Shown here: piece after piece, positions 11,901 to 55,563 of the stretch
How the letters are laid out: the number at the start of each line of letters is the position of its first letter
Numbering within the stretch: the first letter of the stretch is position 1
DNA from: Escherichia coli
Lineage (GTDB): Bacteria > Pseudomonadota > Gammaproteobacteria > Enterobacterales > Enterobacteriaceae
Direction: 5' to 3' (one strand)
Assembly: GCF_009931435.1 (NCBI RefSeq)
Contig: NZ_CP043414.1
Length of the DNA: 64,000 nucleotides
Made by a program: the position numbers and the translations under genes
The notes under the pieces: model-generated
What the model saw: the letters and a program-made list of their open reading frames with translations, nothing else
Database searches by the model: none
Told to the model about the DNA's origin: nothing

Positions 11901-13917
<2,017 letters not shown>

Positions 13918-13947
13918 TTTGTACACCGTCCGGCACTCAATCGCCAA

Positions 13948-14177
13948 AAAGAAAAAAGCCAGCAGATAATCACTGCTGGCGTGGCGATTAACACCAATAC
14001 TCAGTCACACATGATGTCCGCAAATCAGTAGTCAGAATGACTCCCCTCCCACTGCATCAGCTCTTCAAGCATGGTTAATCGTTGTGGGACGCTTAACCAA
14101 CGCAACCAGCACAACGTCGCTGTCGCGGTAAAATAGTGCTGATAAAACTGACGTATGGGGCACCTCCTTGCTTCATC
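13948..14177 (-). ncRNA. sgrS: SgrS small RNA (glucose-phosphate stress), divergent from sgrR
   Basis: Minus-strand RNA beginning GAUGAAGCAAGG, conserved GUGUGACUGAGUAUUGGUGU seed region, terminator hairpin GCCAGCAG/CUGCUGGC plus U-run; position between sgrR and leuD. Confidence 0.75.
14025..14156 (-). pseudogene. sgrT: sgrT-like 43-codon frame inside SgrS whose initiation codon reads ATA instead of ATG
   Basis: Frame encodes (I)RQFYQHYFTATATLCWLRWLSVPQRLTMLEELMQWEGSHSDY; codon at 14154-14156 is ATA on the minus strand; an AGGAGG lies 7 nt upstream. Confidence 0.4.
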
Positions 14178-25619: not shown

Positions 25620-26063
25620 TCAGGCAGCAAGAAAAATTTCTGCCCCTATTCCCTCAATTAACAGTGCTTCTAATGAAGGGGCAATATACACCGCATCATC
25701 AAGATCTAAATTACCAAAACCGACGAGATATAAACCAAACCCCTCTTTTCCTTCGGCATAAAAAATCACTTTTCCGCCTTCATCATCGCCAATCGCCAGA
25801 GCGTGTGGAATATAATCCTGAATATGGTATGCGGCATTCATCTCACTACAGCCTGCGGCTCCCCAAATTCTGATATAAGACGTTGAATCCATCACTTTTA
25901 ATTCAACGTCTGCCATCAGAGTAATAAAGGTTAAATACTCATCAGGAATTGCAATGTGAAAATAATTTTTTATAAGTTGACCGAGTCCACTATAATCTAA
26001 TACGGGTTCCCATGACGCCAGCGTGAATTTTTCATGCAATTTAACAATAGGAAACTTACTCAT
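25620..26063 (-). CDS. Hypothetical protein, SUKH/SMI1-KNR4-like (candidate immunity protein); third gene of the islet operon
   Basis: 147-aa ORF; ATG with AAGGA SD; start overlaps upstream ORF stop (ATGA); motifs IPDEYLTFI, AIGDDEGGKVIFY, DDAVYIAPSLEALL resemble SUKH-family immunity proteins; AT-rich. Confidence 0.6.
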   Translation of the reverse strand: MSKFPIVKLHEKFTLASWEPVLDYSGLGQLIKNYFHIAIPDEYLTFITLMADVELKVMDSTSYIRIWGAAGCSEMNAAYHIQDYIPHALAIGDDEGGKVIFYAEGKEGFGLYLVGFGNLDLDDAVYIAPSLEALLIEGIGAEIFLAA

Positions 26064-26407
26064 TTCATCATCCTTTTCTTATACTTCTGGGGTAAAATAT
26101 CCGTTATAACGCCTTCACCTATAAATCCGGCTTCCCACAGCAGAAACTCACTGCCACAGCTGATCCACGGCATTACAAGTTCAGGATTTAAAAACGCCAT
26201 CTCAAGATTGTGTACCATTTCGCCAGGGTGAATCGTTTTTCCATAGCCGTCGATGTAAATCCGGCAGCCATAACCATATGAAGATAACTCATTAATCCCT
26301 TTAAAAAAGACAGGACAGCCGTAAAAACGGTTAGATGATAACAAAGGGCCACGATGCGATTTTTGCGTTGAAGAGTATAGTGTAATGGTAATCCGAACCT
26401 TTCTCAT
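26060..26407 (-). CDS. Hypothetical 115-aa protein; second gene of the islet operon
   Basis: ATG preceded by GGAGG SD 5 nt upstream; 12-nt spacer from upstream ORF; overlaps downstream ORF start; no recognisable family. Confidence 0.55.
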   Translation of the reverse strand: MRKVRITITLYSSTQKSHRGPLLSSNRFYGCPVFFKGINELSSYGYGCRIYIDGYGKTIHPGEMVHNLEMAFLNPELVMPWISCGSEFLLWEAGFIGEGVITDILPQKYKKRMMK

Positions 26408-26419
26408 CTTCCCTCCGAA

Positions 26420-26752
26420 TTAATTACGCTCTTCAATCAAATATGTCGTTTTATTAGTCCAGGCGATTATTTTATAGGGTCTGTTAATAATACCTTTCTG
26501 CGTATAATCAGCCATAATTTCTGATGGATACCAACCATAACCAAAGCAAAATAAAGCACCTACATTAATAAGCTCACTAATTACACTTAGTTTCTCATTT
26601 TCATTACTGGTATTTTTGCTAAATCGATCATTGTCGGCAGAAAAACCCAACCGTTGCATTTTTTCAACGTTATCATATCCGGTCACTACCGTTTCAATGA
26701 AATTATCACTTATGCTAACCACTATAATACAATCGCTCGGCAGTGTGTTCAT
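26420..26752 (-). CDS. Hypothetical 110-aa protein; first gene of the islet operon
   Basis: ATG with AAGGA/AGGGG SD; AT-rich; no recognisable family. Confidence 0.55.
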   Translation of the reverse strand: MNTLPSDCIIVVSISDNFIETVVTGYDNVEKMQRLGFSADNDRFSKNTSNENEKLSVISELINVGALFCFGYGWYPSEIMADYTQKGIINRPYKIIAWTNKTTYLIEERN

Positions 26753-46098: not shown

Positions 46099-46201
46099 AG
46101 TTAACTCGCGTGTTTACGCCTTTGTTTTCCCACAAAGTGTAGTCATATATTCACGCGGCTTATAGTCAATAATATTGATTCAGAAAAAGCAGAAATCTGA
46201 A

Positions 46202-46435
46202 TCAGTTGTCCAACTCACTCATATCTTTAACCTGATCGCGGTTGATCTGTTCAGTTTGCCCGGTTTGCGCATTTTTGTAAGAAACCAGCCCGGTATCGTC
46301 ATCAACCTGCGGTTTACCATCGGTGACTATCGTTTGGCCATCGGTTGTTCTTACCGCCTGGTTTGAGGAACAGCCAGCCACAGTGAACATTACCGCCGCG
46401 GCGAAGATTGATGTGATCAATACTTTATGTTGCAT
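46202..46435 (-). CDS. Small lipoprotein, YgdI/YgdR (DUF903) family
   Basis: 77-aa ORF; lipobox VAGC; C-terminal region DG.TIV.DGKPQ.D.DTG..SYK...G....INR..VK.M.ELD parallels YgdI; occupies the position where K-12 has caiF..yaaU. Confidence 0.7.
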   Translation of the reverse strand: MQHKVLITSIFAAAVMFTVAGCSSNQAVRTTDGQTIVTDGKPQVDDDTGLVSYKNAQTGQTEQINRDQVKDMSELDN

Positions 46436-46524
46436 CGTCTTTTCCTCTGCTTTGCTGTAGTAAGCATTCAGTTTAGGTTAACTGCCTGAAAGCAAGTGAA
46501 AAAACAGAAGATTCTGAGGCGAGT

Positions 46525-46554
46525 TGCGCCCGGCAACAGCAATGTTACCGGGCG
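46525..46554 (-). terminator. Possible carB terminator hairpin
   Basis: GCGCCCGG-loop-CCGGGCGC stem just after carB stop; U-tract is weak or distal. Confidence 0.4.
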
Positions 46555-46562
46555 CGGAGGGG

Positions 46563-49500
46563 TTACTTCTTAATCTGCGCGTGCATTTCCTGCACCGAAA
46601 TTACTTTTTCAGTCGCATCGGCATTCAGCGCCATCGCGGTAGCGAAACCACCGTTCAGGGTGGTGTCATAGTGCACTTTATATTGCAGCGCACTGCGACG
46701 AATCACGCGGGAGTCCTCAATCGCACGACGGCCTGAGGTGGTGTTGATGATGTAGGTATATTCGCCATTCTTGATACGGTCCTGAATGTGCGGACGACCT
46801 TCATGCACCTTGTTCACCAGACGCGGGTTAATACCTGCTTCGCCCAGCACAATCGCTGTGCCGTGGGTCGCATCCAGCTCGAAGCCCTGTTTCAGCAGTT
46901 TTGCCGCCAGGTCAACCACGCGTTCTTTATCGCCTTCACGCACGGAGAGCAACGCACGACCGTGTTTCTTCATCGTGGAGTTACTGCCCAGCTGCGCTTT
47001 GGCAAACGCTTCAGCGAAGGTGCGGCCCACGCCCATCACTTCCCCGGTAGAGCGCATTTCTGGCCCTAACAGCGGGTCAACGCCGGGGAATTTGTTGAAC
47101 GGCAGCACCACTTCTTTCACCGAGTAATATGGCGGGATAACTTCTTTAGTTACGCCCTGCTCAGCCAGCGATTTGCCAGCCATCACACGCGCCGCTACTT
47201 TCGCCAGCGGTACGCCGGTGGCTTTGGAGACGAACGGAACGGTACGCGCCGCACGCGGGTTAACTTCAATCAGGTAGACTTCGTTGTTTTTCACCGCAAA
47301 CTGCACGTTCATCAGTCCGCGCACCTGCAATTCGAAGGCCAGTTTCTGCACCTGTTGGCGCATCACATCCTGAATTTCCTGACTTAAAGTGTAGGCTGGC
47401 AGAGAACATGCGGAGTCACCGGAGTGCACGCCCGCCTGCTCAATATGCTCCATGATGCCGCCAATCAGCACCATTTCACCGTCGCAGATGGCGTCCACAT
47501 CCACTTCTACCGCGTCATCGAGGAAGTGGTCCAGCAATACTGGTGCATCGTTAGACACGCTCACCGCCGTCTGGAAGTAGCGACGCAGGTCAGCTTCGTC
47601 ATAGACGATTTCCATCGCCCGACCGCCGAGAACGTAAGACGGACGCACCACCAGCGGGTAACCAATCTCTTTTGCCTTCTCAACCGCCATTTCAATAGCG
47701 GTAACGGTGGCGTTCGCCGGTTGTTTCAGTTTCAGACGGTCAACCGCATGCTGGAAGCGTTCACGGTCTTCCGCACGGTCGATAGCATCCGGGCTGGTGC
47801 CGATAACCGGTACGCCAGCGGCTTCCAGTGCGCGCGCCAGTTTCAGCGGGGTCTGACCGCCGTACTGAACGATAACGCCTTTCGGCTTCTCAATACGCAC
47901 GATTTCCAGCACATCTTCCAGAGTTACCGGCTCGAAGTAGAGGCGATCGGAAGTGTCGTAGTCAGTGGAGACGGTTTCCGGGTTACAGTTAACCATAATG
48001 GTTTCGTAACCGTCTTCACGTAGCGCCAGCGAGGCGTGTACACAGCAGTAGTCGAATTCAATACCCTGACCGATACGGTTCGGGCCGCCGCCGAGCACCA
48101 TGATTTTGTCACGGTCAGATGGGTTGGATTCGCACTCTTCTTCATAGGTGGAGTACATATACGCGGTGTCGGTGGCAAATTCTGCCGCACAGGTATCCAC
48201 ACGTTTGTAGACCGGGTGCAGGTCATACTGGTCGCGTAGCTTGCGGATTTCCGCTTCGCGCACGCCCGCCAGTTTAGCCAGACGCGCATCGGCAAAGCCT
48301 TTGCGTTTCAACTGGCGCAGGAAGTCAGCGTTCAGGCCAGTGATGCCCACTTCCGCCACTTTCTCTTCCAGACGCACCAGTTCTTCAATTTGTACCAGGA
48401 ACCAGCGGTCAATGTTGGTCAGGTTAAAGACGCCGTCTACAGACAGGCCCGCACGGAAAGCATCGGCGATGTACCAGATACGATCTGCGCCTGCGTCTTT
48501 CAGCTCGCGGCGAATTTTGGTCAGCGCTTCCGGGTCGTCCAGGCTGACTTTCGGGTCAAAACCAGTCGCACCGACTTCCAGGCCGCGCAGGGCTTTTTGC
48601 AGGGATTCCTGCTGCGTGCGACCAATCGCCATCACTTCGCCGACGGATTTCATCTGAGTGGTCAGACGATCGTTAGCACCGGCGAATTTCTCGAAGTTGA
48701 AGCGAGGAATTTTGGTCACCACGTAGTCGATGGACGGTTCGAAGGAGGCCGGAGTACGCCCGCCAGTGATGTCGTTCATCAGTTCATCGAGGGTGTAACC
48801 AACCGCCAGTTTCGCCGCCACTTTGGCAATCGGGAAACCGGTGGCTTTCGACGCCAGCGCCGAAGAACGGGACACTCGCGGGTTCATTTCGATAACAATC
48901 AGGCGACCATTTTTCGGGTTCACCGCAAACTGGACGTTGGAACCACCGGTTTCAACGCCGATTTCACGCAGCACCGCCATCGAGGCGTTACGCATGATTT
49001 GATATTCTTTGTCGGTCAGCGTTTGGGCTGGCGCGACAGTGATGGAGTCACCGGTATGGATGCCCATCGCATCGAAGTTTTCGATAGAGCAGACGATGAT
49101 GCAGTTGTCGTTTTTATCACGCACCACTTCCATCTCGTACTCTTTCCAGCCGATCAGCGACTCATCAATCAGCAACTCTTTGGTCGGAGAGAGATCCAGA
49201 CCGCGGGCGCAAATTTCTTCAAACTCTTCGCGGTTATAAGCGATACCGCCACCGCTACCGCCCATAGTAAAGGATGGGCGAATAATGCACGGGAAGCCCA
49301 CATCAGCGGCAACTGCCAGCGCTTCTTCCATGGTGTGCGCGATACCGGAACGCGCAGTTTCCAGACCGATTTTCTTCATCGCCACGTCGAAACGGCGGCG
49401 GTCTTCGGCTTTATCAATCGCATCGGCGGTGGCACCAATCATGGTGACGCCGAACTCTTCCAGCACGCCCTGACGCTCCAGCTCCAGCGCACAGTTCAGC

Positions 49501-52393: not shown

Positions 52394-53314
52394 TTACGAC
52401 GCCAGAGCCAGCACCTCAGCCACCCACTGCTGGAAACCTTTCACATCCAGATCCAGCGCCACCTGCACGTTTGCAGGTTTACTCAGGCAACCATCAATAT
52501 CAACAACCGTAGTACCTGAGGTAAATTCACCCTGAGTTTCCACCGCCACAAAACACGGTTTGAGAGTGAACAAGTCTGGGCGCACCAGCCAGGCGATGGC
52601 GCAGAGATCGTGCATACGCAGACCGCTTTGCATACTGCCGCTACGGTAGTGGCTAAACAGGGCGTGCAACATTTTCCCGGTACGATTCAACTCCGGCAAA
52701 GTAGCGAGATAGTCAGGAGTTAATATTGCCTGATTGGTGACATCCAGACCGCACATAACGATTTCGATGCCGCTACGGAAGACACAGGCTGCCGCTTCTG
52801 GATCGGCAGCGATATTAAACTCGGCGTTTGGCGTACAGTTGCCGCGTCCGGCAGAACCGCCCATGATCACCAGACGGCGAATATGCGGTTTGCATTCCGG
52901 GCATTGTGAAAGTAACAGCGCAATATTGGTTAACGGGCCGATGGCTACCAGCGTAACAGGCTCAGGCGCACGCAGCAGGGCATCACGAATCGCCAGAAAT
53001 GCGGGTTTGTCCAGTGGGCTTCTGTTGTGCTCGACAAAGTCGTAGCCAGCCATTCCCGATTCACCGTGCACAGATGCTGCATTACGCGGTGCGCGTACCA
53101 GCGGCACAGCGGCTCCCTGGGCGAGCGGAATATCCGCATTCCAGAAATGCAGCAGTTGCAGGGCGTTGCGGGTAGTTTTCTCAACCGAAACATTACCCGC
53201 GACGGTGGTCATCAGTTGCAGGTCGAGTTCGGGGGCAAAAATCGCGGCGGCAATGGCGACCGCATCGTCAATGCCTGGGTCTGTATCAAGGAAGATGGGT
53301 ATAAGTTTTGTCAT
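52394..53314 (-). CDS. rihC: Non-specific ribonucleoside hydrolase RihC
   Basis: 306-aa ORF; N-terminal [14 protein letters not shown] motif; starts 19 nt after the 402-aa ORF stop. Confidence 0.9.
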
Positions 53315-53333
53315 TACTGTCTCTCCTGGCTTG

Positions 53334-54542
53334 TTACTTGCTCATGGCTTTGAACTCATCGCGGCTGATACAGATATCCGAAATATCTTTATTCGTCACC
53401 AGACGCGGGCTAAGTTTATCGCCTTCAACAAACGGTACTAGCGGGCAAAATTCCCCTGGAGACGCTTTATCTTCCTGCCACTGAATTTCAATGGATTCCG
53501 GCTTCATACCTGGTTTCTGTGACTGAATGACTGTGCGGATATCCGTGGTTAACTGAAATGGCTCACACCCCTTCACATCAGTAAAAGTCGGCGTCAGATG
53601 ACCATTCTTACGTTCCTGCAGATAAAAAATGCGGCCATCGTGATAGGAAGGAATTACGTAGCAGGTATACATTTTACCTTTGCTTAGCACGGGCTGAAGA
53701 TAACTTGAACCTCTCTCGATCAATTCAACCTCTTTCCCCTTCCAGCGATAAACGTCAACCCCGTGACTACAGCAGCTTCCTCGCCAATGGCTGACGATCT
53801 GCTTATATTCTGCATCTGGCTCCGGCGAGGTGATTTCCTGATAAGACGCAGGCGCATCAACAAAACGTTGTGTTGAGGGATCGTAAAGCCAGGTTTGTTC
53901 GGGGATATTGGGTCCAGCGGGTAACTCTTGCGGAATGGAAAGATCCGGATAACCATCAAAATTAACATCCTTCCATTGAGGCGTAAAAATGCTACAAGTG
54001 CCGATAGAAGCAGTATATAAGGTCTGTATCGGTTTCCCATCACGATATAATTTTATTGCTGAAATGACCGGAACATTATTACAGTCGATCGCTTTGGAAG
54101 GGTCGTAATCGTCATTCACTTCCGCCACCAGCACCAGATCAATGCCCGGATCGTTTTTGGGTTTGTTATAGTTAAGCGCAATGGGGAAATGGTGTTTTTT
54201 ATCGGCTGAAGTCCATACACCTTTTATCTCAATCGGTGAAACTTCAGCATCCCATTGACCAGAAAGTGTCTGTGCGCGCTCCTCAAGAAGCAACCGCTTA
54301 ACCTGGAGAGATCCACGCAGAATTAATCGCATTTTTCTCTGATTGCAGGGTTCATAGCAATAGCTACCATGAAGGTCGTTGTTAATCCGCGTGATATCGA
54401 CACTTACCTGCTTACCCGCAATCGTCCCGGAATAATTTCGATCCCAGAACGGAAATTCAAGCTGCGAAGCGCCATTGGCCGCTCCCAAACAAAATACAAA
54501 AGCCAAAAATCCCGCCAATCCATAAGCTATCTTGCTCATCAT
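53334..54542 (-). CDS. Hypothetical secreted Cys-rich protein (402 aa) inserted between ispH and rihC
   Basis: ATG with GGAGG SD; N-terminal signal peptide [25 protein letters not shown]; at least 10 Cys; FDGYPDL motif; no family recognised; absent at this position in K-12. Confidence 0.65.
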
Positions 54543-54566
54543 CCTTGCCTCCGCAGAAGAGTACAG

Positions 54567-54597
54567 CTAAAAAAAACCAGCAACGAATGTGCTGGTT
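54567..54597 (-). terminator. Rho-independent terminator after ispH
   Basis: AACCAGCA-loop-TGCTGGTT followed by T8 on the minus strand; ends about 25 nt before the 402-aa ORF start. Confidence 0.8.
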
Positions 54598-54612
54598 TTG
54601 AATGATTAATCT

Positions 54613-55563
54613 TTACTCGACTTCACGAATATCGACACGCAGCTCTTTTGGCACTTCGAAAACAATGTTTTCTTCACGGCCTTCCAGCGAAATGGCTTCA
54701 CCACCGCCCAGTTGCTGTAAACGTGCGACTACATTCTGCACCAGAATATCCGGAGCCGATGCGCCCGCAGTTACGCCAACGCAGTTCACGCCTTTTACCC
54801 ACTCTTCCTGGATATCTTTCGCATCGTCAATTAAAAACGCGCGTTTGCCCATACGCTGGGCCAGTTCCGCCAGACGGTTGGAGTTGGAAGAGTTTTTTGA
54901 ACCAACCACCAGTACTACTTCCGCCTGTTCTGCCAGAGCGCGTACCGCTTCCTGACGGTTAGTGGTGGCGTAGCAAATGTCATCTTTGCGCGGACCGACA
55001 ATTTTCGGGAAGCGTTTACGCAGCGCGTCGATCACATCAGACGTGTCATCCACCGACAGCGTGGTTTGGGTCATAAAGGAGAGTTTCTCTTCGTTTTTGA
55101 CCGTCAGTTTCCACACATCGTCCGGCGATTCGACCAGATACATTCCCCCTTCCGGGTTGCTGTACTGACCCATCGTCCCTTCCACTTCCGGGTGACCGGC
55201 GTGACCGATAAGAATAGACTCTTCACCACGGCGGCTGGCACGGGCGACTTCCATATGCACTTTGGTCACCAGCGGACAGGTGGCATCAAACACCGTCAAA
55301 TCACGGCTTTTCGCTTCGTTACGTACCGCCTGAGAAACACCGTGTGCGGAGAAAATCAGGATCGCGCCGTCCGGGACTTCGCTAATCTGCTCAATAAAGA
55401 TAGCCCCACGCTCCCGCAGGCTATCGACCACGTAGCGGTTATGCACCACTTCGTGACGGACATATATCGGTGCGCCGTAAATGGCCAGCGCGTTTTCAAC
55501 AATGCTGATAGCGCGGTCTACCCCGGCACAAAAACCACGCGGGTTGGCCAACAGGATCTGCAT
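54613..55563 (-). CDS. ispH: 4-hydroxy-3-methylbut-2-enyl diphosphate reductase IspH (LytB)
   Basis: Frame 54613..55647 trimmed to conserved [19 protein letters not shown] start (316 aa). Confidence 0.95.

Follow-up and report, generated by a model that had tools for sequence, protein, structure and literature searches.

The stretch analysed here, hereafter the window, is 64,000 nucleotides of the Escherichia coli contig NZ_CP043414.1 (assembly GCF_009931435.1), in which the junction between ispH and rihC is occupied by a gene for a 402-residue protein of the DUF8339 or ‘XAC2610-related’ type, which we call X. All three genes, and all parts of X located below, lie on the minus strand. ispH (54613-55563, stop at 54613-54615) is the last gene of the ileS-lspA-fkpB-ispH block and lies upstream of X, which runs as an intact open reading frame (ORF) over 53334-54542, from an ATG start to a stop codon at 53334-53336; the frame opens with ATGATG, and the PGAP annotation begins at the second ATG and so gives 401 residues. 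Between the two genes stands a 10-bp hairpin (54573-54599), 14 nucleotides after the ispH stop and followed by a run of eight T residues, the whole (54565-54599) resembling an intrinsic terminator. X begins 26 nucleotides past this T-run, behind a putative Shine-Dalgarno sequence, GGAGG, at 54548-54552. On its other side, a spacer of 19 nucleotides (53315-53333) that carries AGGAG at 53323-53327 leads to rihC (52394-53314), present here in a 306-residue form with the ancestral 5' end (MTKLIP...), from which K-12-type alleles deviate in the first 13 nucleotides. The original prediction, made from the letters of the window, had described a 402-residue gene that starts about 25 nucleotides past the ispH terminator and ends 19 nucleotides from rihC with a Shine-Dalgarno sequence between, at a junction that is short in K-12; each of these points holds, the K-12 spacer measuring 65 nucleotides. 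The GC content of X is 46%, and that of its flanks 54-55%.

Distribution and ancestry of gene X

The survey of presence and absence that the original prediction had proposed was run on 5426 complete E. coli genomes, with megablast and a sensitive blastn search in agreement. Nine genomes carry X, always in the order ispH-X-rihC (LHM10-1 and 2020CK-00188 are examples of X-bearing strains), and no remnants were found elsewhere in these genomes, X being absent from about 99.8% of them. The E. coli alleles form two groups, 99.7-99.8% and 97.4% identical to the window, the second occurring in genomes with K-12-like flanks, and the frame is intact in all nine genomes, in the window and in the metagenomic alleles. 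In Salmonella enterica, the same position is held by an orthologue of the same length and domain content (69% identity), which likewise follows a hairpin and ends 15 nucleotides from rihC; it bears the legacy name ‘putative nitrite reductase’, probably corresponds to STM0050 of LT2, and is widespread, its 90%-identity cluster holding 4762 sequences. The order ispH-X is also found in Citrobacter (loci L010 and L054) and Enterobacter (L011), Entomohabitans (L012) has ispH-rihC-X, and two metagenomic loci, L051 with E. coli-like flanks and the enterobacterial L052 with flanks about 83-87% identical to the window, both read ispH-X-rihC-dapB. The search patterns used in the contig scan for relatives missed Salmonella, and the total distribution of the gene is not inferred from that scan.

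Measured between the window and Salmonella, synonymous divergence (dS) reaches 1.27 in X, compared with 1.04 in ispH and 1.68 in rihC, while the ratio of non-synonymous to synonymous divergence (dN/dS) is 0.16-0.32 for X, with 0.25-0.32 between the E. coli alleles, against 0.03 for ispH and 0.06-0.08 for rihC. Because its dS matches that of the flanks and its dN/dS lies in this range, X has evolved in place under purifying though relaxed selection, and the same ratios among homologues, together with the confident structural model described below, confirm that it is not a chance ORF. Over its colinear blocks, the window shares no more than 95.4-96.8% identity with K-12, and it therefore comes from a divergent E. 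coli lineage.

X had originally been read as an insertion into a K-12-like ispH-rihC junction. A recent horizontal arrival would fit the low GC content, the great rarity of the gene in E. coli and the occurrence of its family in distant proteobacteria, yet the evidence leaves it only the slimmest of chances: the same site is occupied in five enterobacterial genera, X and its flanks have diverged equally from Salmonella at synonymous sites, neither mobility genes nor repeats are present, and the low GC is of long standing, since the Salmonella copy is also below its genome (48% against 53.5% for the locus). The structure of the X-less junction speaks against it as well. The rihC of X-less E. 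coli aligns to that of the window only from nucleotide 14, the junction falling inside the first 13 nucleotides, whereas the X-bearing rihC keeps a Salmonella-like 306-residue 5' end. K-12 and a strain whose rihC is 99% identical to that of the window share the same 65-nucleotide spacer with one nucleotide difference, and this spacer contains a terminator hairpin of its own, unrelated to that of the X-bearing haplotype, plus a new rihC start. Given orthologues at the same site, a flank-like dS and one derived junction common to all X-less E. coli, X is ancestral, and a single shared deletion or replacement allele, which now dominates the species, removed it from most E. coli; the event to be explained is a loss. 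The further suggestion that rihC had newly become the partner of a secreted protein stands as regards the tight 19-nucleotide spacing and falls as regards novelty, the pairing being ancestral, as the 15-nucleotide gap in Salmonella indicates. Taken together, we hold these statements on the evolution of X, and those on its identity given below, with high confidence.

Three further observations concern variation at the locus. The metagenomic locus L051 (4001-5212, aligned to 53334-54542 of the window) carries a third Escherichia-type allele of 80.6% amino acid identity that is mosaic, with nucleotide identities of 76-80% over the first 200 or so codons, 91-93% over the rest and 93-95% in the flanks, a pattern that suggests recombination or diversifying selection on the N-terminal barrel domain. 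Among the AFDB50 matches are several shortened Salmonella entries of the X family (331, 319, 271, 216 and 127 residues), which might reflect either pseudogenes of certain serovars or fragmented assemblies. rihC is itself unusually polymorphic, 5338 genomes being only 90-95% identical to the window allele.

Expression signals and the STnc30 hairpin

The hairpin upstream of X is homologous to the 3' hairpin of STnc30 (RF02048), a candidate small RNA in Rfam. In Salmonella, the ispH-X spacer of 200 nucleotides holds a complete STnc30 (L004, 4847-4978), scoring 161 bits against a gathering score of 120, with its 3' hairpin about 30 nucleotides upstream of X. The X-bearing E. coli haplotype has lost about 135 nucleotides of this element and retains the 3' hairpin only, with a longer T-run, and an Rfam scan of the window returned just one fragment of STnc30 (54565-54679, minus strand; 24 bits, below threshold); the spacing from hairpin to start codon is conserved between the two species. 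STnc30 may thus be the 3' untranslated region of ispH or a leader of the DUF8339 gene. The 80-nucleotide leader of X folds at -21.1 kcal/mol.

A consensus scan of the minus strand from 54543 to about 55800 found no sigma-70-like site, and promoter scans gave nothing above chance in either E. coli or Salmonella. Since X starts just behind the hairpin in both species, with no promoter-like site in view, its transcription would depend on read-through: these signals make it most likely that X is transcribed from the ileS-lspA-fkpB-ispH unit through the hairpin, or in Salmonella from a promoter upstream of the hairpin, and that transcription probably continues into rihC. The original prediction had noted that there is no room for a conventional promoter, which is right in so far as none is recognised behind the hairpin, although this is no peculiarity of X, the K-12 rihC start being placed likewise, 14 nucleotides behind its own, different ispH terminator. 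The coupling of X to rihC is limited to Escherichia and Salmonella, other genera having rihC either absent or on the other side of X, and for this reason we regard the link between the two genes as positional and not functional.

The same signals could be taken to mean that X in E. coli is a transcriptionally silent relic, promoterless behind a strong intrinsic terminator and heading for loss, a view that might also draw on the missing part of the STnc30-containing spacer and on the absence of the gene from nearly all of the species. This is nevertheless very improbable, as every frame seen is intact, the dN/dS between E. coli alleles is 0.25-0.32, the Shine-Dalgarno sequence is good and the Salmonella-like spacing of hairpin and start has been kept; K-12 rihC, moreover, is presumably expressed from a comparable position behind a terminator.

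Family membership and predicted architecture of X

The protein opens with a predicted signal peptide (residues 1-24; 54471-54542) of the signal peptidase I type, in which a basic MMSK n-region and a hydrophobic core, modelled as a low-confidence helix over residues 6-19, precede an A-x-G cleavage motif (ANG|A). The calls rest on residue pattern and hydropathy, and hydrophobic N-termini are kept throughout the family in the homologue alignment. No lipobox is apparent: the FVFC stretch fails to fit one, its cysteine (C18) shows no conservation, and there is no cysteine in the signal peptide of the Salmonella orthologue. Eleven cysteines occur in X, one in the signal peptide and ten in the mature protein. 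C62 and C66 are invariant in the family alignment, C183, C257, C258, C366 and C391 are at least 90% conserved, and C154/C183 and C294/C326 are each lost jointly in some homologues, which implies disulfide pairs. The pattern favours some five disulfides and a location in an oxidising compartment, and bears out the earlier description of X as a secreted-type, cysteine-rich protein.

That X belongs to no recognisable family, as was first supposed, is not the case. Residues 189-277 (53712-53978) match the NCBIfam model NF047539, XAC2610_fam, at 89.5 bits (cutoff 35; E 1.5e-25), RefSeq/PGAP already uses the name ‘XAC2610-related protein’, and precomputed matches record Pfam PF27031 (DUF8339) on 60 of the 61 relatives found, including P0001 (401 residues), which is 100% identical to X over its alignment. 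Our own Pfam-A scan gave no match up to E<=10, with a copy of the database that lacks PF27031. No ligand-binding or catalytic family was matched in NCBIfam (E<=1) or Pfam (E<=10), and ‘nitrite reductase’, the name found in older nr and UniProt entries, was rejected, neither a nitrite reductase family nor a cofactor-binding domain being matched at the same thresholds. An exhaustive profile search with a threshold of E<=1e-3 yielded 2336 cluster representatives. The full architecture of some 400 residues is shared by no more than about 35 of them; most are proteins of 200-250 residues with the central core alone, like XAC2610 itself. X therefore adds a member to DUF8339, a subfamily that bears a name but awaits characterisation: with regard to homology to a well-characterised family, one distant relative, XAC2610, has been characterised, and the subfamily has not.

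Structure prediction, another of the checks proposed at the outset, was run with AlphaFold2 on a 58-sequence alignment and gave a confident all-beta model in three parts (pLDDT, the per-residue confidence score, 91; pTM, the predicted template modelling score, 0.83). An N-terminal up-and-down barrel of eight strands (residues 27-125; 54168-54464), containing the invariant YCYxPC motif with C62 and C66, is followed by a central XAC2610-like beta domain (residues about 135-312; 53607-54140) and by a C-terminal beta domain (residues 313-402; 53337-53606) with the conserved C366 and C391, for which XAC2610 has no equivalent. The central domain carries three motifs. The loop DVNFDGYPD (residues 192-200; 53943-53969), with D196 and D200 invariant, is a predicted Ca2+-binding loop aligned to DINGDGHED of XAC2610. 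A near-invariant loop, LPAGPNIP (residues 207-214; 53901-53924), is the topological equivalent of the loop of XAC2610 that bears Y170. A vicinal cysteine pair followed by serine and histidine (C257, C258, S259, H260; 53763-53774), with H260 invariant, aligns to GCCIHVFDTY of XAC2610.

XAC2610 is an immunity protein (X-Tfi) of the bacteria-killing type IV secretion system (T4SS) of Xanthomonas citri (PDB 4QTQ), in which the Ca2+ loop comprises residues 151-159 and Tyr170 sits in a proposed inhibitory loop (PMC10933484). In the model, X shares its fold, and the aligned acidic loop suggests that X too could bind Ca2+. A single-sequence search of the PDB with X found nothing and the family profile reaches 4QTQ only at E 0.097, so that the case for homology rests on the NCBIfam match and on the fold. 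The two proteins differ in several ways: XAC2610 is a lipoprotein of 267 residues, and X a 402-residue protein with a predicted signal peptidase I signal and an extra domain at either end; X has no tyrosine in its LPAGPNIP loop; and XAC2610 is encoded beside its GH19 effector XAC2609, whereas the neighbours of X are ispH and rihC, with no X-Tfe (XVIPCD) or T4SS genes. With tyrosine loop, lipobox and adjacent effector all looked for and none found, X should not be filed as an X-Tfi.

Candidate function, neighbourhoods and meaning

The reading that we prefer, at a probability of roughly 45%, is that X, a vertically inherited enterobacterial gene, encodes an orphan periplasmic inhibitor of peptidoglycan hydrolases, proposed by analogy with characterised inhibitors. 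X would be exported by the Sec pathway, cleaved by signal peptidase I after about G24 and oxidised in the periplasm to some five disulfides, including the vicinal C257-C258 pair, to give the N-terminal barrel, a Ca2+-stabilised XAC2610-like domain and the C-terminal beta domain. The folded protein would then block, stoichiometrically, an enzyme that enters the periplasm and degrades peptidoglycan, possibly the type VI secretion system (T6SS) or T4SS effector of a competitor or a lysozyme-type enzyme, with the LPAGPNIP loop beside the Ca2+ site possibly presented to the active-site cleft of the target. It is called an orphan immunity-type or inhibitor gene because no cognate toxin gene is adjacent. 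XAC2610, the P. aeruginosa T6SS immunity protein Tsi1 and PliI-Ah, a periplasmic inhibitor of i-type lysozymes, are reported to share a beta-sheet topology and to inhibit peptidoglycan hydrolases by loop insertion (PMC10933484), and inhibitors of the Pli type are, like X, encoded by stand-alone periplasmic genes. Another precedent is S. Typhi t0732, an XAC2610-like protein of the t0728-t0735 islet with no cognate effector in the genome, for which a role as a guard against foreign peptidoglycan-degrading effectors has been proposed (PMC7400221); t0732 shares its islet with other immunity genes and has homologues downstream of T6SS effectors, whereas X, a member of the longer DUF8339 subfamily, stands by itself at a housekeeping locus.

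Neighbourhoods in other bacteria bear on this reading in both directions. Most DUF8339 genes stand alone, as in Pseudomonas guguanensis, in Comamonas and in Lysobacterales (beside msrA and glnS), Comamonas testosteroni SWCO2 having two tandem copies (L036, 8544-9803 and 9989-11104). When the neighbours of 41 species-level loci were clustered, with noisy ORF calling in the high-GC ones, no family proved common across genera other than VgrG in six loci. X in the window adjoins no T6SS effector; in Burkholderia, Massilia and Stutzerimonas, DUF8339 genes lie within VgrG effector and immunity regions. The T6SS clusters of Burkholderia ubonensis and its relatives read VgrG, an effector of about 800 residues, an immunity protein of about 220-240 residues, DUF8339, PAAR, TssM and TssF. 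In Massilia, DUF8339 borders a VgrG-effector island whose cargo varies between species, and in Stutzerimonas some 2.8 kb separate it from VgrG, an adaptor and a 1362-residue effector, all upstream of it; an ‘evolved VgrG’ was considered there and rejected, the effector being separate and downstream of a VgrG of 719 residues.

Two candidate partners were examined and set aside. The VgrG-linked Burkholderia effector family p823/p807/p766, named in its sources ‘M23 metallopeptidase’, ‘chitinase’ or ‘lysozyme family’ and matched in Pfam by weak M23 fragments only (E 1.2 and 7.1), is not the partner of DUF8339, because it has an immunity protein of its own, p244 or p241, conserved along with it (p244 is 51% identical to p241, which follows a 74%-identical effector in Paraburkholderia), and because three other p823 loci are without DUF8339. 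A conserved small secreted partner upstream of DUF8339 was likewise rejected, the proteins found there (p244, p217, p222, p215 and p155) having no mutual similarity. As observations in their own right, the DUF8339 ORFs of the B. ubonensis-type clusters (L009, 6001-6105 and 7528-7653; L049; L057) open with 35 residues that duplicate the N-terminus of the downstream PAAR gene, apparently a scar left by recombination of cassettes, and a Paraburkholderia locus (L062) has repeated effector-immunity-PAAR cassettes. The overall pattern fits an orphan immunity gene stranded in effector and immunity arrays, without proving it.

Several findings weigh against an inhibitor. VgrG lies within 10 kb in only six of the 41 loci, drawn from three lineages; no effector partner of DUF8339 was identified in the Burkholderia loci, and none is adjacent in those of enterobacteria, Pseudomonas, Comamonas or Lysobacterales. 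X has neither Tyr170 nor a lipobox, it is larger than typical immunity proteins, and full-length identity in DUF8339 is about 40% between gamma- and betaproteobacteria, with invariant loops, unusually high for an immunity protein; this size and conservation are equally compatible with a housekeeping role. With so strong a hairpin and T-run and no promoter in sight, X could be expressed at a very low level in E. coli. The literature yielded no functional data on DUF8339 members, and searches on STM0050, DUF8339, STnc30 and ispH with rihC found nothing relevant.

Much of this would suit the chief rival view, a distinct though doubtful possibility, in which X is a conserved periplasmic protein with some other role and its likeness to XAC2610 reflects a shared scaffold only. 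It might bind a small ligand or glycan through its N-terminal barrel, which resembles the ligand-binding barrels of the avidin or lipocalin type, or be a Ca2+-dependent envelope or adhesion factor like the FG-GAP and VCBS repeat proteins whose names its distant structural neighbours carry. The stand-alone housekeeping contexts of most DUF8339 loci, the spread of X through Salmonella in one 90% cluster, the high conservation along the full length with several invariant loops and the missing inhibitory tyrosine all agree with such a role. Yet the sole characterised relative is an enzyme inhibitor, DUF8339 recurs in T6SS variable regions of three lineages, no ligand-binding or catalytic family is matched, and the ease with which X has been lost from E. 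coli speaks against an essential housekeeping function.

Nor need an inhibitor be an orphan. Salmonella and many E. coli possess T6SS effectors that target peptidoglycan. X might be a true immunity protein for an effector encoded elsewhere in its genome, guarding against intoxication by self or kin, much as XAC2610 protects mainly against cis-intoxication (PMC10933484). Immunity genes, however, nearly always adjoin their effector, the 64-kb window, otherwise colinear with K-12, contains none, and the presence of X in very different genera with no conserved neighbour argues against a fixed partner, all of which makes this improbable. The preferred reading, that of an orphan inhibitor, can also be carried further: DUF8339 might form a distinct class of three-domain periplasmic inhibitors with a conserved target, shielding the cell wall as a broad-spectrum and ‘innate’ defence from a widespread class of peptidoglycan-hydrolase effectors or lysozymes, fixed in Salmonella, polymorphic in E. 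coli in both presence and allele (with a hypervariable N-terminal half), and gated in expression by read-through of an STnc30-type hairpin. We consider this extended version rather unlikely.

Elsewhere, the window departs from K-12 at several places. Between araD and polB (25620-26752, minus strand) lie three ORFs of 147, 115 and 110 codons that are absent from K-12; the first matches Pfam SMI1_KNR4 (SUKH-1; E 7e-4), an immunity-protein superfamily, and the window may thus have a second islet of the orphan-immunity kind. Between apaH and folA stands a chromosomal ccdB/ccdA toxin-antitoxin pair (42405-42955, minus strand; NCBIfam matches below equivalog cutoffs), which K-12 is without. Between carB and kefF, the window lacks the whole caiF-caiTABCDE-fixABCX-yaaU block that K-12 has at 34.0-47.1 kb, some 370 bp (46201-46570) standing there instead, with a short minus-strand ORF that resembles a lipoprotein (MQHKVLITSIFAAAVMFTVAGCSS...), and setA (77.6-78.8 kb in K-12) is absent between sgrS/sgrT and leuD (13911-13952). 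Beyond rpsT, the window diverges from K-12 over 61272-64000, with a 490-residue ORF (61494-62966, plus strand) that has no family match and a YehD-like fimbrial subunit (63210-63743, plus strand).

X was already annotated in RefSeq and its family named, and what is proposed here, by analogy, is an activity for DUF8339; the finding is solid and only moderately surprising. If X is an inhibitor, E. coli would have at this locus a simple natural polymorphism in resistance to weapons or lysozymes that degrade the cell wall, with X carried by about 0.2% of its complete genomes while being widespread in Salmonella, and a function would be at hand for the Salmonella gene now misnamed ‘nitrite reductase’. 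Were the broad-spectrum version to hold as well, strains with and without X would differ in their susceptibility to contact-dependent killing or to host lysozymes. Beyond this locus, X illustrates that what is ‘absent from K-12’ need not be an insertion: it can be an ancestral gene that most of the species has lost.

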